Assembly (NCBI RefSeq): GCF_000018105.1
Contig: NC_009925.1
Location: 2,850,001-2,882,000 of the forward strand
Direction of reading: 5' to 3'
Source of the DNA: Acaryochloris marina MBIC11017
GTDB taxonomy: Bacteria; Cyanobacteriota; Cyanobacteriia; Thermosynechococcales; Thermosynechococcaceae
DNA length: 32,000 bases
Shown here one piece after another: positions 2,765 through 14,350 of this stretch (positions are counted from its first letter, which is position 1; the number at the start of each line of letters is the position of its first letter). The translations under genes and the position numbers were made by a program. The notes under the pieces were generated by a model. It was given only the letters and a program-made list of their open reading frames with translations. It ran no database searches and was not told the DNA's origin.

Positions 2765-5101
2765 ATGTCGAAAAGGCGACGATACCGACCGTTTTTAATT
2801 CTTTTTGCGATAGGAATGTTCCTAGGATGCTTAACTGCCACGCATCCTAGACTGATCGCCAATCCTCACTTATTCCATGCCCAAGCTTACTGGACTCCGA
2901 CGGTTACCCAGACGGTCAATCAAACGTCCTTGGCGGGAACCTGGGAGTTTCAAGCCGATCCGCAGCCCCCGGCAGACAAGCTAGTGCTACAGCCAAGTGG
3001 CCCAGATCTCCCACCCCTACCGCAAGGACAATGGCAAAAGATTACCGTGCCCTCCAACTGGTATCTACAGGGGCAAGATGCATCGGGGGTGGTTTGGTAT
3101 CGCCATCAATTTCGCGCTAACGATCGATGGCGTCGAAAGATTACCCGCCTCGTTTTTTCGGGGGTGGACTACACCGCCGATGTTTGGCTAAACGGACAAT
3201 ATTTAGGGTTTCACGAGGGCTATTTTCAGCCCTTTTCCTTTGATGTGTCTAAGGCCCTAATGTTTACAGGTCAGAATGAATTATTAGTCCGGGTCAATAG
3301 CCCCTTGGAGCCTGAAGGCCAGGATTGGTCCCTGCGTAAACGGTTGATTAAAGGCATTTTTAGCCACCACGATACCCGTCCGGGTGGGGCATGGACCGAT
3401 CGCGGCCAGGAGAAAAACACCGGGGGTATTTGGGCACCCGTATTTTTGCAAGTCTCGGATCAAGTCGCCATTGAAACACTTCAAATCACCCCGGAGTTAG
3501 ATACCGACCATCAACAGGCAACGGCCAAGGTGGATCTGGTGGTCAACTCTCCAGGGCTGGGCAAGACCACTCTAGATGCCCATATGAAGTTAGAGCCAGA
3601 GAACTTTGAAGGGGTACCGATTGGCCCCATTCAAGTGCAGCGAACCCTGCATCAAGGGGCCAATCACCTAAAGCTAGAGGTTCCCGTAGATGACCCGAAA
3701 CTCTGGTGGTCTTGGGAGCATGGAGACCCCAATTTATATCGCCTCACGGTACAGTTAGCCGATGGCAATCGGCTCCTGGATAAGGCTTCTGATGTGTTTG
3801 GATTTCGCACCATTCAGTTTGACCCGACAGAAAAAATCTGGCGACTGAATGGTCGCCGCCTATTTTTGCGAGGCACCAATTACATTGCCACCCAATGGCT
3901 GAGTGAAATGACGCCGGACAAATACCAGACGGATATTGACCTGATGAAAGCGGTCAATATCAATACGGTGCGGGTTCATGCCCATGTGATCGGCAAGGAG
4001 TTTTATGAACTGTGCGATCGCAACGGCGTATTTATCTGGCAAGACTTCCCCTTGCAGTGGGGCTACGAAGATACGCCCCAATTTCTCAAAGAAGCCACCC
4101 GCCAAGCCAAGGACATGATTGGTTACCTTTACAACCATCCGTCGATTCTGGCCTGGAGTCTGCATAATGAGCCACCCTGGGATGCGGACTGGATGAAGTA
4201 TAAGTACGAGTCCTATAATCCAGAGCAAAATCGCGAGCTAGATGCCAAACTGTTTGCCAATCTCCAAGGAGAAGACCCGACCCGTCTGCTCCATCCCGTA
4301 TCTACCGTCGGGGAGCATCCCTGGTGGGGCTGGTATTCCCACACGATGTATAAATATGCAGAACCAACTACAGAAGCGATTATTTCCGAATTTGGCGCTC
4401 AAGCTTTACCCCATATAGATTCCCTGCGGCGCATCTTTACGGAGGACGAGCTATGGCCGGATACAGAAGCGGAATGGGATAAGTGGCTCTATCACAACTT
4501 TCAACGCCATGAAACCTTCAACATTGCCAAGGTGCCCATGGGCAACACCACCCAGGAGTTTATCGACAACACCCAGCAGTACCAGTCCCAACTGATTCAG
4601 TTTGCCGCCGAAGCCTATCGTCGCCAGCGCTATCAGCCCGTTTCATCCATTTTTCAATTTATGTTTGTGGAGGATTGGCCGTCCATGAACTGGGGCATTG
4701 TCGATTACTGGCGACAGCCTAAGCCCGGCCATGAAGCCCTGAAATGGGCCTATCAGCCGGTCTTACCCAGTATTGCGTGGCCGCAACTCACCTGGACCTT
4801 GGGAGAAACGGTAGAGCTGGAACTCTGGGCCATCAACGATTTGTGGAAAGACTATCCAGAGGCCATCTTTACCTATGCCCTGCGCCAGAATCAACAACGC
4901 CTTAAATCCGGTCAAAGTCGGATTAATTTGGCTGCCGATAGCAGTCAGCCTGTAGATAAGATCTTTTTCCAGCCCCAGAACTTGGGTAGCTACACCGTCA
5001 CCGCCACCCTCAAGGATCGGCTAGGAACGGTCTTGGGAGAAAACCAGTTTGTGTTTGATGTGATTGATCGGGGGGATCAAACCAATGAGTCGACGTCGTA
5101 A
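2765..5101 (+). CDS. Glycoside hydrolase family 2 protein (beta-mannosidase/galactosidase-like), N-terminal membrane anchor or signal
   Basis: 778 aa. The GH2 sugar-binding region reads VVWYRHQF...VDYTADVWLNGQYLGFHEGYFQPFSFDV. The TIM-barrel has the acid/base motif WSLHNEP and the nucleophile region IISEFGAQAL. The N-terminus is hydrophobic (RPFLILFAIGMFLGC). Confidence 0.8.
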   Translation: MSKRRRYRPFLILFAIGMFLGCLTATHPRLIANPHLFHAQAYWTPTVTQTVNQTSLAGTWEFQADPQPPADKLVLQPSGPDLPPLPQGQWQKITVPSNWYLQGQDASGVVWYRHQFRANDRWRRKITRLVFSGVDYTADVWLNGQYLGFHEGYFQPFSFDVSKALMFTGQNELLVRVNSPLEPEGQDWSLRKRLIKGIFSHHDTRPGGAWTDRGQEKNTGGIWAPVFLQVSDQVAIETLQITPELDTDHQQATAKVDLVVNSPGLGKTTLDAHMKLEPENFEGVPIGPIQVQRTLHQGANHLKLEVPVDDPKLWWSWEHGDPNLYRLTVQLADGNRLLDKASDVFGFRTIQFDPTEKIWRLNGRRLFLRGTNYIATQWLSEMTPDKYQTDIDLMKAVNINTVRVHAHVIGKEFYELCDRNGVFIWQDFPLQWGYEDTPQFLKEATRQAKDMIGYLYNHPSILAWSLHNEPPWDADWMKYKYESYNPEQNRELDAKLFANLQGEDPTRLLHPVSTVGEHPWWGWYSHTMYKYAEPTTEAIISEFGAQALPHIDSLRRIFTEDELWPDTEAEWDKWLYHNFQRHETFNIAKVPMGNTTQEFIDNTQQYQSQLIQFAAEAYRRQRYQPVSSIFQFMFVEDWPSMNWGIVDYWRQPKPGHEALKWAYQPVLPSIAWPQLTWTLGETVELELWAINDLWKDYPEAIFTYALRQNQQRLKSGQSRINLAADSSQPVDKIFFQPQNLGSYTVTATLKDRLGTVLGENQFVFDVIDRGDQTNESTS

Positions 5102-7639: not shown

Positions 7640-9508
7640 TTAGGTTTCGTCGAAGGATAGGTTGGCAAAATGTTCTTGGAGGTAGCGGTGAACGAAGACG
7701 TAGCTACCACCTGTGCGGTAGATAAAAAGGCGATCTTCCGCTTGCTGAAAAAAGGTGACAAAATTCCAGGGGATTTGCTTAGTGTGGTAAAGGACTAAAC
7801 GCATCGCAAAGTGCTGAATAGAGGTTAGTCCTCCTCCTGCAAGAAAAGCTCCCATGATTGGTAACCCTATGACTAATCGAATAACGCGTTTCACTAAATT
7901 TGGGTCTAAGGACGAAAGCAAAATATTTTTCAAGAAAAAATAAATAATAATCGTAAAAAAAATCGATATTGTAACCGTGATCACCATAGTTTTGAGAGAT
8001 TCCCAAATACCTTGATTTGGGAAAGTCCGCTTTATAATATCGACTTTTAAGCCTCCAATCAGCCCTAAAATTAGCCCAAAAATCAGTCCGAAAATCAGCC
8101 CTCCAATCAGTCCGAAAATCAGCCCTCCAATTAGCCCTCTAGTTAGCCCAACAATTAGCCCAAAAATTAGCCCAACAATTAGCCCAACAATTAGCCCTCT
8201 ATTTAGTCCATAAGTTAGCTCTCTTCTCAACGACGCCAAAATGTCTCGTCCCGTTGTTCGGGACATTGAAATTTTTAAAGCTTCTACAAGAACAATAGGT
8301 TTTTGCCCTCCAATCAGTCCTCCAATCAGTCCTCCAATCAGCCCGTAAATTAGCCCTAAAATTAGCCCAGAAATTAGCCCTTCGGGTAGCCATCTAAGCC
8401 CTCTAATCAGCTCAAAAATCGGCTTAAAATTCGAATTGCAAGTCGCATCGATAGTCGAATCGCAAATCAAATCGAAAATCTCTCCTCTTATCACATCTCC
8501 AGTCAGCTCATAAATCAGTCCTCCAATTAGCCCTAAAATTAGCCCAAAAATCAATCCTGAAATTAGCCCATAAATCAGCCCATAAAGATATTTGTCTCTT
8601 GCTGTTTTTAACCAATCTTTGGGTTGCATTCGCTCAATCAAAAATTCTTTATCGGTCCCCATTTTCTTGGCTATTCCTCGGAGCCAGCGCAACATTTGTT
8701 GCTGTTCTTTCTCAGAAGACAAAGGTCGCTGAGCAAACATTCGTTCAATATAGCGTTCAAACAGGAGGCTTAATTTCTGGTCTTTATCTAAATGAAGTAA
8801 CTCCTGAGGTGAGCGATTGCAATAGGCCAAAGTCAAAATCCTCAGAAAAAGCGGCGTATTGGTTAAATCCCGCAGCGAAGAATTGACCTTTGAAGAATTG
8901 GCCTTTTTTAAACCAACGAGTGCTTCCCCTCCCTGTTGTAAATACTCATTCACCTGCTTGTCTTTTAAAGGTTGAACATACACCGCTGCTTGAAACCCTT
9001 TTAATCTTGTGTTCAGTGCTTTATAGTCAGCAATTCGGCAGCACAGCACGATTTCGATATTGCCAAATTTTTGCCGAAACTGATTTAATGCGTCTACACA
9101 AGCATCACGATATTGGGGTTTGACTTCATCCAAACCGTCTAACAGCAAGGTCCATTTCTCTTGCCTCAGCCAAGTTTTCCCCACTTCTATGCGAACTAGA
9201 TATTGCTGCCATAGCTCTTCCAGCAGCCACTTGGTAAAGACTAGCGTTCCATCTGCAGGGAACCGCTGACTGCCCCAAGCCGACAAATTCAACACAATCG
9301 GTATCGGTTGTTTTAGTTCTCGAAAATCAGTCGCTTTCAATAAATCTTGCGCTAGCTCCAACAGCAACGTCGTTTTCCCGGCACCCGGTTTTCCCAGCAC
9401 CAGCAACGTTCCCCCACTGCCTAAATTGGCGAATCGATCCAGTAAGCACGTACCAGGGGGCAACAACTGTTGCTCTTCTCCCTCGCTTGGCCATTTCACC
9501 CCCACCAT
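7640..9508 (-). CDS. NACHT-family STAND NTPase with an internal glycine-zipper (GLIx)n transmembrane array
   Basis: 622 aa. Walker A is LVLGKPGAGKTTLLLEL and Walker B is LLLDGLDEV. The NACHT-type C-terminal strand is LFIYRTGGSYVFVHRYLQEHFA. Residues 307-487 contain three blocks of GLI(F/G/L/V/Y/S) repeats, followed by two ordinary TM helices. Confidence 0.85.
   Translation of the reverse strand: MVGVKWPSEGEEQQLLPPGTCLLDRFANLGSGGTLLVLGKPGAGKTTLLLELAQDLLKATDFRELKQPIPIVLNLSAWGSQRFPADGTLVFTKWLLEELWQQYLVRIEVGKTWLRQEKWTLLLDGLDEVKPQYRDACVDALNQFRQKFGNIEIVLCCRIADYKALNTRLKGFQAAVYVQPLKDKQVNEYLQQGGEALVGLKKANSSKVNSSLRDLTNTPLFLRILTLAYCNRSPQELLHLDKDQKLSLLFERYIERMFAQRPLSSEKEQQQMLRWLRGIAKKMGTDKEFLIERMQPKDWLKTARDKYLYGLIYGLISGLIFGLILGLIGGLIYELTGDVIRGEIFDLICDSTIDATCNSNFKPIFELIRGLRWLPEGLISGLILGLIYGLIGGLIGGLIGGQKPIVLVEALKISMSRTTGRDILASLRRELTYGLNRGLIVGLIVGLIFGLIVGLTRGLIGGLIFGLIGGLIFGLIFGLILGLIGGLKVDIIKRTFPNQGIWESLKTMVITVTISIFFTIIIYFFLKNILLSSLDPNLVKRVIRLVIGLPIMGAFLAGGGLTSIQHFAMRLVLYHTKQIPWNFVTFFQQAEDRLFIYRTGGSYVFVHRYLQEHFANLSFDET
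8048..8212 (-). repeat. 12-nt in-frame tandem repeat block C (about 13.5 units) encoding (G-L-I-x)n
   Basis: The plus strand reads ccaatcagccct aaaattagccca aaaatcagtccg aaaatcagccct ccaatcagtccg and so on. It translates on the minus strand to YGLNRGLIVGLIVGLIFGLIVGLTRGLIGGLIFGLIGGLIFGLIFGLILGLIGGL. Confidence 0.9.
8306..8383 (-). repeat. 12-nt in-frame tandem repeat block B encoding EGLISGLILGLIYGLIGGLIGGLIGG
   Basis: It has the same 12-nt unit family (ccaatcagtcct ccaatcagtcct ccaatcagcccg taaattagccct ...). Confidence 0.9.
8504..8590 (-). repeat. 12-nt in-frame tandem repeat block A encoding YLYGLIYGLISGLIFGLILGLIGGLIYEL
   Basis: It has the same 12-nt unit family (aaatcagtcct ccaattagccct aaaattagccca aaaatcaatcct gaaattagccca taaatcagccca). 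Confidence 0.9.
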
Positions 9509-9517
9509 CTTAGGCCT

Positions 9518-9942
9518 CTACTCCAATCTCACCGAGATCCGAGTCTGCTCCTTCAGAGATTTTTTCAACCCCCCATCAATCCATGTAACCCGCACCTTAT
9601 CCATCAAACCTTTGCGATTGTCTTGCCACCGGGCTTCATCTAATTCAGTCGTTGTCAGCATCTGGACTATATCCGCCACCATCATGCCCGATAGCCCCAC
9701 CAGTACAACGACGTAGAGTGGACCAATCGACTCCGTATCAGGGCCCTTCGGTGATTTACTAAAAACAAAAGCAAACGCTGCCGATTCGACCACCAGTTTC
9801 AGCGATGTTCCCCACTTGGCTTTTTTTGTTCAGCCGGGATAAATCCTAATATCCAGCCCATCACCACTGGAATAAACACCGTAAAAAGAGGTGTTATGGC
9901 CGCCGGAAGAATAGAATTACTAAGTAATGTGAGGAAAGTCAT
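9518..9942 (-). pseudogene. Disrupted 5' part of the NACHT gene: TM-helix N-terminus, A7 frameshift, then an in-frame TAG
   Basis: ATG 9942 opens MTFLTLLSNSILPAAITPLFTVFIPVVMGWILGFIPAEQKK and runs through an A7 tract (plus-strand T7 at 9821-9827) to TGA 9801-9799. One extra A would join it to frame 9793..9518 (...AKWGTSLKLVVESAAF...ARWQDNRKGLMDKVRVTWIDGGLKKSL...ISVRLE). That frame ends at TAG 9520-9518 and is in frame with the NACHT ATG at 9508 (LE*RPKMVGV). Confidence 0.6.
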
Positions 9943-10279: not shown

Positions 10280-12172
10280 ATGCTCCATTGTCTGAACCCC
10301 ACTTGCACCCATCCCCAGAATCTGGATGGCCATGAAACCTGCCAGAACTGTGGCCAACCCCTGATCGGCATATTGCGCCATCGATATCACATCATCAAAC
10401 CCCTAGGGCAAGGTGGGTTTGGCATTACCTATTTAGCCGAAGATCTTGAGCGATTTAACGAAACCTGCGTCGTTAAACAACTAACCTACCAAAGCCCGGA
10501 TAGCCCAGGAGCCCAGCAAAAAGTCCAAGACCTGTTTACCCAAGAAGCCCAACAGCTCTTTCAACTCGGCACCCATCCGCAAATTCCCAACCTGCTCGCC
10601 TACTTCCATGAAGGAGGCCGTCAATATCTCGTCCAAGAATTTATTGAGGGTCATAATCTTTTTCAAGAATTGAAACGTGAAGGGATCTATAACGAAACCA
10701 AACTAAGGCACTTTCTCTCCAGCATTCTGCCCGTTTTGGACTATATCCATACCCAAGGCGTCATTCACCGCGATCTGAAACCCCATAACATCATGCATCG
10801 CTCCGCCGACGATCGTTATTTCCTGATTGACTTTGGGGTGACCAAGCAGGTCAATACTCAAGAAACCGTCGGCACTGTTTTAGGCAGCGAAGGCTATGCC
10901 GCCTTTGAGCAATTAAACGATGGACGTACTTATCCTGCTAGTGATTTATACAGCCTAGGGGTGACCTGTTTTCATTTCTTGACAGGCCATGATCCACGGT
11001 CACTTCAACTGCAAATTGGATACTCTTGGACCCAAAACTGGCAGAAACACCTTTCACAACCCCTCAGCCCTCAACTCATCTCAATTATTGATACGCTGCT
11101 ACAAATTAGACTCGAAAATCGCTACACCTCTGTTGAAGAAGTTCTCAAGGATTTGGAACAATCACCCACCTCCCCAACAACAGTAGACGTCGCTACCAAC
11201 AGCCCCTTTATCCATCAAACCAACAAACTTGAGCTTGCTAACACAGCCGACCATACTGCCGTCTTATTTGAACCCGATCCCCCAGCACCACCCGTCGCAC
11301 ACCCCCTATCCTCCCCCTTAGAAACCACACAATTTGAAGTAGCAACCCTCGATCTCCTCGGTCAAATTCAGTCTATCCAAACCCTGAGTGCTCAACGTTA
11401 TATCGAGGAATTAGACAATGGACTGTCCCTAAACATGGTTGCTATTCCAGCAGGGAGTTTTCTCATGGGTTCACCCCTCACAGAAATATCCAGACAAAGA
11501 TTTGAAGGTCCTCAGCATCCAGTCACAGTCCCCGCGTTTCATATGGGGCAATTTCTGATCACGCAAGCGCAATGGCAAGCCATCGCGGCACTCCCCGCCG
11601 TCAACCAAGATCTTCTCCCAGATCCTTCCCAGTTCAAGGGAGAAGACCGCCCTGTTGAAGGAATTTCCTGGCTAGATGCTGTCGAGTTTTGCGACCGACT
11701 CACCCGTAAACTCAATCGACTCTACCGCCTCCCTAGCGAAGCAGAGTGGGAATATGCCTGCCGAGCCAACACCACAGCCCCCTTTCACTGTGGCGAAAAT
11801 CTCACCTCCGATCATGCCAACTTGCATGGCATGAAAACCTATCGGTCAGCCCCCAGAGGGCAGTATCGCAATCAGACAACTCCTGTAGGCAGTTTTCGCC
11901 CCAATGCCTTTGGTCTCTACGATATGCACGGCAATGTCTGGGAATGGTGTGCCGATCATTGGCATCCCAGCTATCAAGACGCTCCTGTAGATGGCAGCAT
12001 CTGGTTCGCCCAGGAGAATGTCATTGCAGACAATGCTCCTCATCCTTGGCGAGGAGGATCTTGGTATGATGCGCCCGCAAGCTGTCGTGCTGCCTATCGA
12101 ACCTTTGCAGATGCCGACTTTAAGAGCAGTAATTTAGGCTTGCGTGTCGTCAGTCCAGTTCTGTCCCCCTAA
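10280..12172 (+). CDS. Ser/Thr protein kinase with N-terminal 4-Cys zinc ribbon and C-terminal FGE-sulfatase (SUMF1-like) domain
   Basis: 630 aa. The zinc ribbon is CLNPTCTHPQNLDGHETCQNCGQPL. Kinase motifs are the G-loop LGQGGFG, VVKQL, HRDLKPHNIM and LIDFGVTK. The C-terminal FGE-type motifs are WQAIAALP, RPVEGISWLDAVEFC, YRLPSEAEWEYACRA, HGNVWEWC and RGGSW. Confidence 0.9.
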   Translation: MLHCLNPTCTHPQNLDGHETCQNCGQPLIGILRHRYHIIKPLGQGGFGITYLAEDLERFNETCVVKQLTYQSPDSPGAQQKVQDLFTQEAQQLFQLGTHPQIPNLLAYFHEGGRQYLVQEFIEGHNLFQELKREGIYNETKLRHFLSSILPVLDYIHTQGVIHRDLKPHNIMHRSADDRYFLIDFGVTKQVNTQETVGTVLGSEGYAAFEQLNDGRTYPASDLYSLGVTCFHFLTGHDPRSLQLQIGYSWTQNWQKHLSQPLSPQLISIIDTLLQIRLENRYTSVEEVLKDLEQSPTSPTTVDVATNSPFIHQTNKLELANTADHTAVLFEPDPPAPPVAHPLSSPLETTQFEVATLDLLGQIQSIQTLSAQRYIEELDNGLSLNMVAIPAGSFLMGSPLTEISRQRFEGPQHPVTVPAFHMGQFLITQAQWQAIAALPAVNQDLLPDPSQFKGEDRPVEGISWLDAVEFCDRLTRKLNRLYRLPSEAEWEYACRANTTAPFHCGENLTSDHANLHGMKTYRSAPRGQYRNQTTPVGSFRPNAFGLYDMHGNVWEWCADHWHPSYQDAPVDGSIWFAQENVIADNAPHPWRGGSWYDAPASCRAAYRTFADADFKSSNLGLRVVSPVLSP

Positions 12173-12475: not shown

Positions 12476-14350
12476 ATGGTTTGTTGTCTCAATCCCAAGT
12501 GTGAGAAACCCCTCAACCCGGACACCAGTAAATATTGTCAACAGTGTGGTGCTAAACTAACGCTGTTAAGACGGCGATTCAAGATGGTTCGTCTGCTGGG
12601 TAAAGGTATGTTTGGCAATACGTATCTTGCAGAAGATCGAGATAATTTGCAAGAACCCTGCATTGTCAAACAGCTCATTTGTCAAGCCCAGGGAACGGAT
12701 GCCAGCCAGACGGTTGTTGAACCATTTTTACAAGAGGCAGAACAACTTAGACGGCTGAAAAAAAACCAGCATATCCCCAGCATTTTAGCGTACTTCGAAG
12801 AAAATTATATTCCCTATTTGGTCCAGGAATTTATCGACGGCCAAGACCTGCAACAAGTCATTGAAAATCAAGGTCCCTTCAGTGAAAATCAAGTTCGGGC
12901 CTTGTTGCTAGAGCTATTACCCGTCTTACAGACCATTCATGATCAAGGGGTGATTCATCGGGATCTAAAACCCGCTCACATCATGCGTCAGCATTCGGAC
13001 AACAAGCTGATTTTGGTGGGGTTTTGTGTCTCCAAACAAATCAATTTATCTCGGTTACAACAAACCGATAACGTTCGCGAGAATACCAGCTACGCACCAC
13101 CCGAAGTCTTTGCCGTCGACAAAGCCCGTCCCGGCAGCGATCTCTATAGCCTCGGGGCAACCTGCGTCCATCTGCTCACAGGCGTTGCACCCCACGCTTT
13201 ACCGATTCAGGGCGGGGCCGTATGGGTCGAACATTGGCAACAGCATCTTCCCCAGCCGTTAAGTGCTGAATTAAAGCCAGTGCTAGAGAAGTTATTAAAG
13301 ACAGATCTAGCGGAGCGATATACATCCGCATTAGAAGTGCTCAGAGAAGTACGGGGCTTAGCCAAAGGAACCACTCGCCCCCTCCCTCAAGCACCAGCCG
13401 TTCGAGTCGCTCAGGCCGCTGGCCAGACAGCCCCGCAGGTCAGATCTCAGCCCAAAGCCCCTGCCCAGCAAACCACACTGCAGTCTAAACCCAAGTCTTC
13501 TACCCCTTCCTTCCAGGCGGAAGTTGCCCAAGTCGATGCCAATGGCCAAGTGGTGAGTCGCCAATTTCATCCGATTAGCTACATGACTGAAGATATCGGT
13601 AAGGACGTCAAGCTGGAGATGGTGCATATTCCAGCAGGCCGCTTTTCCATGGGCTCGCCCCCTAGCGAGCAGCATAGACAACAGACCGAGAGTCCCCAGC
13701 ATATTGTGTCCATTCCGGAGTTTTATTTAAGCCGCTATCCGATCACTCAAGCGCAATGGCGGTTAGTCGCCGCCTTACCCGCCGTCAAGCGCGAACTGGA
13801 TGATTCTCCGTCCCACTTTACGGGAGACAATCGCCCCGTCGAAAGCGTCTCTTGGTTCGATGTCGTCGAATTCTGTAACCGACTTTCCCAGCTCACCGGC
13901 AAGGACTATCATCTCCCTAGTGAATCTGCCTGGGAATATGCCTGCCGCGCCGCCAGCAACACACCGTTTGCCTTTGGCGAAACCCTGAACACAGAACTGG
14001 CCAATTATGATGGCACGGCAACCTATGGAGCTGGATCAACGGGGAGTTTTCGTCAACAAACCACCCAAGTCGGCAAGTTCCCAGCGAATCCGTATGGGTT
14101 ATCGGATATGCATGGCAATGTCTGGGAATGGTGTGCCGATCATTGGCATGGCAACTATGGCAATGCTCCAGTTGACGGCAGCGTTTGGCAAGATCAATAC
14201 TTTTTTGCCTGCGTGCTCCGGGGAGGAGCCTGGAACACTCAAGCGGCGAGCTGTCGTTCCGCCTCCCGCATTTGGGAAGCGGCCTCTGAACAAAGCAATC
14301 ACATTGGTTTTCGGGTGGCTTGCACCATAGCTAAACCCGCCAGCCCATAA
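12476..14350 (+). CDS. Paralogous 4-Cys zinc ribbon / kinase-like / FGE-sulfatase-domain protein, with a predicted pseudokinase core
   Basis: 624 aa. The zinc ribbon is CLNPKCEKPLNPDTSKYCQQCGAKL. It retains LGKGMFG, IVKQL and HRD, but the catalytic loop is HRDLKPAHIM (Asn to His) and DFG is replaced by GFC (LILVGFCVSK). A P/A/Q-rich linker follows, then FGE motifs (RPVESVSWFDVVEFC, YHLPSESAWEYACRA, HGNVWEWC, RGGAW). Confidence 0.9.
   Translation: MVCCLNPKCEKPLNPDTSKYCQQCGAKLTLLRRRFKMVRLLGKGMFGNTYLAEDRDNLQEPCIVKQLICQAQGTDASQTVVEPFLQEAEQLRRLKKNQHIPSILAYFEENYIPYLVQEFIDGQDLQQVIENQGPFSENQVRALLLELLPVLQTIHDQGVIHRDLKPAHIMRQHSDNKLILVGFCVSKQINLSRLQQTDNVRENTSYAPPEVFAVDKARPGSDLYSLGATCVHLLTGVAPHALPIQGGAVWVEHWQQHLPQPLSAELKPVLEKLLKTDLAERYTSALEVLREVRGLAKGTTRPLPQAPAVRVAQAAGQTAPQVRSQPKAPAQQTTLQSKPKSSTPSFQAEVAQVDANGQVVSRQFHPISYMTEDIGKDVKLEMVHIPAGRFSMGSPPSEQHRQQTESPQHIVSIPEFYLSRYPITQAQWRLVAALPAVKRELDDSPSHFTGDNRPVESVSWFDVVEFCNRLSQLTGKDYHLPSESAWEYACRAASNTPFAFGETLNTELANYDGTATYGAGSTGSFRQQTTQVGKFPANPYGLSDMHGNVWEWCADHWHGNYGNAPVDGSVWQDQYFFACVLRGGAWNTQAASCRSASRIWEAASEQSNHIGFRVACTIAKPASP

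Follow-up and report, generated by a model that had tools for sequence, protein, structure and literature searches.

We analysed a window of 32,000 nucleotides of the Acaryochloris marina MBIC11017 genome (contig NC_009925.1, positions 2,850,001 to 2,882,000), in which an open reading frame (ORF) of 622 amino acids (aa) on the minus strand is predicted to encode a NACHT NTPase of the STAND type with a glycine-rich membrane block inserted into its winged-helix domain (WHD). The Pfam NACHT model PF05729 matches aa 34-191 of this ORF with 34.0 bits (cut-off 26.7, E = 3.3e-8), and the Walker A and Walker B motifs, GKPGAGKT and LLLDGLDEV, are present, as recognised in an earlier note on this DNA that was made from the sequence alone. 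In an alignment of 97 sequences of the family (A1), the Walker B residues D124, G125, L126, D127 and E128 are all invariant; they form the D[GAS]hDE signature that is used as a NACHT criterion by Kibby et al. (bioRxiv 10.1101/2022.07.19.500537). An AlphaFold2 (AF2) model of the ORF, built with alignment A1, has a predicted local distance difference test score (pLDDT) of 88.5 and a predicted template modelling score (pTM) of 0.82, and its best Foldseek matches in PDB are NLRC4 (4kxf), NOD2 (5irm) and NLRP9 (7wbu), with E values from 8e-7 to 1e-5. Coordinates of the features at this locus are collected in Table 1.

Searches of Pfam, NCBIfam and PADLOC returned no model that spans the membrane insert, and the NACHT/P-loop region alone was matched. 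The NCBIfam model EruA scored only 33.9 bits against a cut-off of 1000, and the best PADLOC matches, mad8 and PDC-S60, reached 18-22 bits in the P-loop region only. KAP_NTPase is absent among the Pfam matches of the ORF at E≤0.1. Pfam matches to MgtE and 5TMR-LYT (E 1e-3 to 8e-3) fall under their own cut-offs and were rejected as probably compositional. A profile of the whole family produced a single, uninformative match among PDB sequences, to the P-loop of an ABC transporter (E = 0.0017). C-terminal to the NTPase, the ORF contains no WD40, TPR or LRR repeats, and the absence of the first two had been pointed out before.

The AF2 model suggests that the membrane insert splits the winged helix after its first helix and strand. 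This agrees with the earlier description of a hydrophobic block inside the NACHT module, which we can now place between the first part of the WHD and the closing hairpin with its His helix. The predicted order of elements is a helix (aa 266-283), a strand at aa 289, the insert (aa 303-575), a helix (aa 583-592), a hairpin (aa 596-599 and 602-605) and a final helix (aa 608-615). The C-terminal end of the ORF, FIYRTGGSYVFVHRYLQEHFA at aa 595-615, encompasses the predicted hairpin and helix (aa 596-615) and the F.HR.L.EHFA motif, which is at least 90% conserved in A1, H607 included. The spacing between PNQGIW and F.HR is a constant 108 aa in the window protein and its closest relatives; the spacing between LIERMQP and PNQGIW ranges from 55 to 207 aa even inside the Acaryochloris clade. 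A spliced query (aa 1-302 joined to 578-622) recovered minimal-insert relatives (P0339 and P0342), in which the same WHD flanks are joined by about 25-30 hydrophobic residues and a QH..LR (LQHY.LR) helix. No canonical relative free of an insert was found among the best 120 matches of the spliced query, and the inserts of the family form a graded size series from about 50 to more than 500 residues.

It is apparent that much of the insert consists of GLIx repeats, whose description and positions in the earlier note were correct: over aa 301-490 the Gly autocorrelation is 26 at lag 4, compared with 7 at lag 3 and 5 at lag 5. Three runs with a strict Gly period of four contain 6, 6 and 13 consecutive GLIx units, satisfying the (G/A/S)xxxGxxxG motif in hydrophobic helices. 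In the DNA, these runs are 12-nucleotide tandem repeats (positions 8503-8586, 8307-8381 and 8052-8224) of the nearly uniform unit GGG CTA ATT NNN, with a regularity far above chance. The proposal that the glycines line one straight helix face does not hold, since in a helix of 3.6 residues per turn a period of four gives a stripe that spirals slowly, offset by about 40 degrees per unit. The apparent loop between the first two runs is itself made of ten degenerate GLIx units (ELTG DVIR GEIF DLIC DSTI DATC NSNF KPIF ELIR GLRW), in which the Gly codon has changed to GAN or AAN and the residues are now Asp, Glu, Asn or Lys. This 40-residue acidic segment is missing from all 23 homologues aligned in a second alignment (A2), occurs only in the window strain, and is modelled with low confidence (pLDDT 58-72).

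Across the family, the median length of each array, A or B, is about 50 residues, and the arrays are composed of 22% Leu, 21% Gly and 14.5% Ile, with hydrophobic residues making up about 50% and charges being almost nil. Gly co-occurrence over the family arrays is 1199 at lag 4 as against about 250 at lags 3 and 5, and the Kyte-Doolittle mean over 19 residues exceeds 1.6 across all arrays. The two ordinary transmembrane (TM) helices that had been noticed after the arrays are present, and the predicted cytoplasmic loops have net charges of +1.3, +1.9, +0.2 and +2.0, the I..VE.L..S loop being net positive family-wide. Because arrays of about 50 residues would provide two helices each, and because of the positive cytoplasmic loops, we infer a block of six TM helices that starts and ends on the cytoplasmic side. 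This topology fits insertion into a cytoplasmic domain, which requires both ends on that side, and together with the AF2 model it upholds the prediction of membrane insertion. A Foldseek comparison of an AF2 model of the insert alone (pLDDT 71.5, moderate) with PDB gave a best E value of 2.3 and TM-scores below 0.3, without a match to a solved channel or toxin; this search offers no support for a channel or toxin fold, nor strong evidence against one.

The family to which the ORF belongs is large. More than 2,694 homologues were found with the full ORF as query, and the last 135 residues alone matched at least 5,492 representative clusters at E≤1e-3 (1,380 at E≤1e-10), almost always at the protein's extreme C-terminus. 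Named members are mostly cyanobacterial, with a few from Chloroflexota, Planctomycetota and Methanotrichaceae. In the A1 consensus, the pre-NACHT helix, the nucleotide-binding domain (NBD) and helical domain 1 (HD1) are followed by WL.WLAQ.M...TVFLIERMQP.WL, array A, I..VE.LKWSW, array B, GLK.DI..RT.PNQGIW.S, the two TM helices and, at the end, GGG.ACIQHF.LRL.LY....IPWNY..FLDYA..R.FLQKVGGGYIFIHR.LLEHFA. Within and around the insert, I405, E409, P497-N-Q-G-I, S504, G560, R570 and P580-W-N are invariant or nearly so, and H566 is invariant. Since motifs outside the repeats are conserved (VE.L, PNQGIW..S, GGG, H566, R570 and IPWN), the insert appears to be a real domain and more than low-complexity sequence.

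The unit of NACHT and insert is constant through the family, and the N-terminus swaps effectors and adaptors. Among the best 120 matches, 19 carry Pkinase and 7 carry AAA_35, and there are examples of cyclase, caspase, trypsin, CHAT, EAD10 and TIR domains. Where an N-terminal Pfam domain is absent, members have either TM helices or short motifs that are rich in G/N/Q and have VQIGG at their core, such as SVLETVQIGGIAGRDLNLTQIQGG. At one locus (L005), a gene for 144 aa (3553-3987) lies 14 nucleotides upstream of a family member, P0113 (4001-6049); the 144-aa protein begins with the N-terminal motif of P0113, VQIGG.AG.DLN (ANVQIGGQAGGDLNVNQ), and ends in a short hydrophobic tail. By analogy, these two genes may constitute an amyloid-like (RHIM/BASS3-like) signalling pair.

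In order to follow the evolution of the gene, we compared it with an intact positional orthologue of 688 aa (P0001) from Acaryochloris sp. 'Moss Beach' (CP071717.1), with which it shares Pkinase-FGE-sulfatase, the 201-aa membrane protein, GH9, GH2, DctP and epimerase genes as neighbours. Amino acid identity between the two strains is 91-99% for flanking genes, 78% for both the Pkinase-FGE-sulfatase gene and the NACHT core, 76.5% for the C-terminal module and 43% for the N-terminal TM region. In the window the arrays total 185 residues, about twice the 94 of the orthologue. The dN/dS ratio is 0.17 for the NACHT core, 0.38 for the arrays and 0.37 for the C-terminal module, compared with 0.06-0.07 for flanking genes, and these comparisons point to a fast-evolving gene that has nevertheless been under purifying selection through most of its history. 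The arrays evolve through slippage of the 12-nucleotide units, and helix length and number drift quickly. In the N-terminal TM region (9521-9942 in the window, 8001-8350 in L004, the locus of the orthologue) two deletions are found and dS is saturated at 2.8, compared with 0.4-0.8 in the rest of the gene and in the flanks. This saturation suggests that the N-terminal TM segment was replaced by recombination, having been swapped in from a paralogue.

The earlier note missed that the gene is broken by a stop codon. The ORF is only the 3' part of a gene that occupies 7640-9942 on the minus strand, as determined by tblastn of two homologues (P0003 and P0006) against the window; homologues extend about 160 residues further at the N-terminus than the 622-aa ORF. 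The gene is cut by an in-frame TAG, the window reading TTG GAG TAG AGG CCT AAG ATG where the orthologue reads TTG GAA GAG CGG CCT GAG ATG. The stop codon is genuine, because it is also carried by three independent short-read assemblies, L001-L003 (SRR29694083, SRR29694090 and SRR29694091), each of which encodes the same 622-aa protein. The ATG with which the ORF starts lies 9 nucleotides past the TAG and is preceded, 6 nucleotides upstream, by a GAGG resembling a Shine-Dalgarno sequence. Because of the TAG, the pre-NACHT helix (EARWQDNR..KVRVTWIDGGLKKSL, encoded at 9521-9650) is cut off from the 622-aa ORF, which lacks its signature; the uninterrupted orthologue P0001 has it. A frameshift at a run of A nucleotides in the upstream fragment was considered as a genuine second lesion and rejected, as the three other assemblies have A8 where the window has A7. 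Apart from this indel, those assemblies and the window are 100% identical over 10-12 kb, and the A7 tract is either a homopolymer or assembly error or a polymorphic, possibly phase-variable tract.

Table 1. Features of the NACHT gene and of its neighbours, in positions of the window.
Feature	Position	Strand	Basis or remark
NACHT-TM downstream ORF, 622 aa	7640..9508	-	NBD, HD1, split WHD and predicted six-TM insert; ORF call, Pfam, AF2, Foldseek
Walker A GKPGAGKT, aa 39-46	9371..9394	-	G39, G42, G44, K45 and T46 invariant in A1
Walker B LLLDGLDE, aa 121-128 (LLLDGLDEV to aa 129)	9125..9148	-	NACHT signature D[GAS]hDE
WHD part 1, aa 266-300 (helix WLRGIAKKMG, strand FLIERMQP)	8609..8713	-	AF2; F289 and I291 invariant in A1
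GLIx array A block 1, predicted TM1, aa 310-333	8510..8581	-	strict period-4 Gly run; repeats, AF2, codon listing
Ten degenerate GLIx units, aa 334-373	8390..8509	-	codon listing; predicted outside the cytoplasm
GLIx array A block 2, predicted TM2, aa 377-401	8306..8380	-	strict period-4 Gly run; repeats, AF2, codon listing
Conserved predicted cytoplasmic loop with I..VE.L..S motif, aa 402-433	8210..8305	-	I405 and E409 at least 90% conserved (A1)
GLIx array B, predicted TM3-TM4 hairpin, aa 434-487	8048..8209	-	strict period-4 Gly run; turn at GLTR; AF2 helices 417-453 and 456-487
PNQGIW motif, aa 497-502	8003..8020	-	nearly invariant in the family (A1, A2)
TM5, ordinary hydrophobic helix, about aa 503-531	7916..8002	-	hydropathy, AF2
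TM6, ends in GGG motif, about aa 542-563	7820..7885	-	hydropathy, AF2; G560 conserved
WHD part 2, aa 564-615	7664..7819	-	IQHFAMRLVLY helix (invariant H566), IPWN, helix 583-592, beta-hairpin, H607 helix (F.HR.L.EHFA)
In-frame TAG, Glu in homologues	9518..9520	-	GAG in orthologue
Upstream fragment, 141 aa in A8 assemblies	9521..9942	-	predicted N-terminal TM helices and conserved pre-NACHT helix; tblastn, translation of L001-L003
A7 homopolymer	9821..9827	-	frameshifts the upstream fragment in the window only; A8 in L001-L003
Two tandem paralogous Pkinase-FGE-sulfatase genes	10280-12172, 12476-14350	+	44% identical mutually; divergent from the NACHT gene
SMC_N/AAA_23 ATPase, 913 aa	14439-17180	+	PADLOC LmuB (Lamassu) 1e-28, mad3 3e-25
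Predicted membrane protein, 201 aa	7031-7636	+	convergent, stop 3 nucleotides from the NACHT stop; weak DUF4184 match (E 0.022)

Beside the NACHT gene, the kinase domains of the two tandem Pkinase-FGE-sulfatase genes match the PADLOC PD-T4-6 models with E values from 1e-90 to 1e-99. The identity of 78% to the Moss Beach orthologue applies to the first of these genes; in that strain the second is divided into two genes, of 362 aa and 265 aa. The convergent 201-aa membrane protein is 97% identical to its orthologue. The neighbourhood is a loose cluster of conflict-type genes, in which we saw no partner conserved with the NACHT gene in an operon.

In terms of function, we lean, by little more than even confidence, towards a reading in which these proteins are NACHT switches of the STAND type whose predicted six-TM insert in the WHD serves as a membrane sensor or regulatory module, or as an anchor. 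Kibby et al. (bioRxiv 10.1101/2022.07.19.500537) assign the output of STAND proteins to the variable N-terminus and sensing to the constant part that follows the NTPase, and a role of the insert as sensor or regulator is favoured over one as a pore because NACHT and insert stay constant while the N-terminal output varies. Fast evolution, which is typical of conflict genes, was also counted in its favour. The insert would tether the switch to the membrane and act as its sensory or regulatory module. A change in the membrane or periplasm would then repack the glycine-zipper bundle, with phage entry or lysis proteins, loss of membrane potential and lipid or envelope damage as candidate triggers. 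Repacking would shift both halves of the WHD, release the His-ADP lock and allow nucleotide exchange and oligomerisation, which would switch on the N-terminal output. For the Acaryochloris clade, this output would be predicted TM helices in a short bundle, which may itself harm the membrane. The more specific idea that the glycine-zipper bundle directly senses membrane integrity or potential, and that its repacking mechanically opens the NACHT switch, is tentative and, on balance, doubtful. Several points weigh against a sensory or regulatory insert in a working switch. Constancy alone is no proof of sensing, and the insert could be a mere anchor. Some close relatives break the scheme of an even number of TM helices, among them P0001, whose array B has only about 15-18 residues, and P0005, which has a single array and lacks the VE.L loop. 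Such variants may be defective; otherwise odd topologies are tolerated, or the arrays do not form strict TM hairpins. The 622-aa product of the window may also be inactive, as its pre-NACHT helix lies across the stop.

The earlier note had proposed a membrane-perforating effector, that is, a protein in which the glycine-zipper insert itself does the damage: a NACHT ring driven by NTP would gather the six-TM bundles into a pore or lesion and kill the infected cell by depolarisation. The iterated GxxxG arrays are indeed real and their phase is conserved across the family, glycine zippers are generally known from helices that form channels or permeabilise membranes, an N-terminal Pfam domain is missing in about 40% of full-length members, and the N-terminus of the Acaryochloris clade consists of TM helices only, membranes being a plausible target. 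However, the insert remains constant while the N-terminus alongside it supplies many bona fide enzymatic effectors and adaptors, and members without such domains retain N-terminal signalling motifs, one of them common to the adjacent small gene. The size range of the inserts, the twofold difference in array length between orthologues and the minimal inserts fit a defined pore poorly, and the insert-only model, itself of moderate confidence, resembled no channel or toxin. We therefore consider a pore unlikely. It is also improbable that the insert does nothing but place the switch at the plasma or thylakoid membrane, with sensing left to the loops VE.LKWSW and PNQGIW or to a partner protein. 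Such an arrangement would suit the facts that conservation within the insert is highest in predicted cytoplasmic loops and not in the arrays, that array length is freely variable and that minimal members retain one short hydrophobic stretch; yet an anchor could sit at either terminus, thousands of proteins place it strictly within the WHD, which suggests mechanical coupling to the switch, and the Gly phase kept family-wide implies selection on helix packing beyond hydrophobicity. A linker of low complexity, made by slippage and lying outside any membrane, would account for the near-identical 12-nucleotide units and the variable array length, but it is scarcely credible given the hydrophobic, almost uncharged composition of the arrays, their hydropathy, the positive-inside loops that flank them, and the two non-repetitive TM helices and conserved motifs that always accompany them. 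Of the finding named in the earlier note as grounds for abandoning its proposal, a length-variable linker with no membrane insertion, the variability in length was thus observed, whereas membrane insertion is still predicted.

At the level of the window copy, as opposed to the family, there is a substantial possibility, if somewhat short of even, that the locus is decaying and that the 622-aa ORF goes unexpressed or is without function, which would be compatible with the explanation given for the family. In addition to the replacement of a conserved Glu by the TAG, which parts the pre-NACHT helix and the N-terminal module from the NTPase, decay is suggested by the low identity and two deletions of the N-terminal region, by the ten array units that have degenerated to an acidic stretch seen in no homologue, and by the split of the neighbouring Pkinase-FGE-sulfatase gene in the sister strain, gene fission and decay being common in the region. 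On the other hand, all 622 codons after the stop are open, with a dN/dS of 0.17-0.38 rather than about 1, which led us to reject a long-standing pseudogene. The ATG and the GAGG after the TAG could permit coupled re-initiation and yield a two-chain protein, and the 141-aa upstream fragment is intact in the A8 assemblies. We therefore regard the locus as either a pseudogene of recent origin or a protein in a two-chain version.

NLR-type switches are central to the immunity of animals, plants, fungi and bacteria, and to our knowledge those that have been characterised are soluble, with the sensor located after the nucleotide-binding module. If the insert senses, the family (at least 5,492 clusters) would couple the detection of danger to oligomerisation through a membrane domain placed in the moving part of the switch; it might cover phage attack on the envelope and would add a sensor of membrane damage to the bacterial defence repertoire. 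If the zipper bundle itself is the sensor, these proteins would be NLR-like receptors that read the state of the membrane and not a soluble ligand, and slippage of the 12-nucleotide units would be a built-in way to retune or diversify the sensor. Experiments could make use of where the insert sits, of the conserved motifs in its loops, of H566, which is invariant, and of the natural series from minimal to large inserts. The window copy is a poor test subject since it is split; better choices would be the intact P0001 or a member fused to a kinase, such as P0042.

Among proteins of known structure, NLRC4 (4kxf) and NOD2 (5irm) are the best matches (E about 1e-6) and share the NBD-HD1-WHD core and the conserved WHD His, at a sequence identity of 13-19%. 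These animal proteins are soluble and carry C-terminal LRR sensors after helical domain 2 (HD2), whereas here nothing follows the WHD and the predicted six-TM block lies within it. Transmembrane glycine zippers, (G/A/S)xxxGxxxG, were reportedly described by Kim et al. (2005, PNAS). The arrays resemble them in their iterated GxxxG motifs in hydrophobic helices, and differ in having up to 13 consecutive units that derive from near-identical 12-nucleotide repeats of labile copy number.

Bacterial amyloid signalling motifs (BASS) associated with NLRs have been described by Dyrka et al. (bioRxiv 10.1101/2020.01.06.895854), with G-phi-Q-phi-G as the core of BASS3. The G/N/Q motifs with a V-Q-I-G core at the N-terminus of other family members, one of which recurs in an adjacent small gene, resemble BASS3/RHIM-like pairs by inspection; the window gene, in contrast, has TM helices and no such motif at its N-terminus, and the partner at L005 bears the motif at its own N-terminus. 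TM segments inserted into an NTPase module are also found in the KAP P-loop NTPases (Aravind et al. 2004, Genome Biol 5:R30, cited in PMC8195603). KAP proteins belong to another NTPase family and, going by the title of that paper, their insertion lies within the NTPase domain, whereas here it is in the winged-helix extension.

The closest precedent is class 4 in the Supplementary Discussion of Kibby et al. (bioRxiv 10.1101/2022.07.19.500537), which comprises bacterial NACHT proteins with TM regions, some of them inserted in the NACHT module, and for which the authors propose the sensing of intramembrane or periplasmic signals. The proteins described here share with class 4 a NACHT module with D[GAS]hDE, multiple TM regions inserted in it, variable N-terminal effectors, and abundance and paralogy in cyanobacteria. 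The earlier remark that the insert was not recognised as a described domain holds for the domain models of Pfam, NCBIfam and PADLOC, but the class as such had been mentioned. Compared with the one sentence that class 4 receives in that discussion, the position within the WHD, the two GLIx arrays with two plain TM helices, the conserved loop motifs and the dynamics of the 12-nucleotide repeats are additions of the present analysis, as is a copy split by a stop codon. We conclude that the window locus is a split member of a class already noted by Kibby et al.

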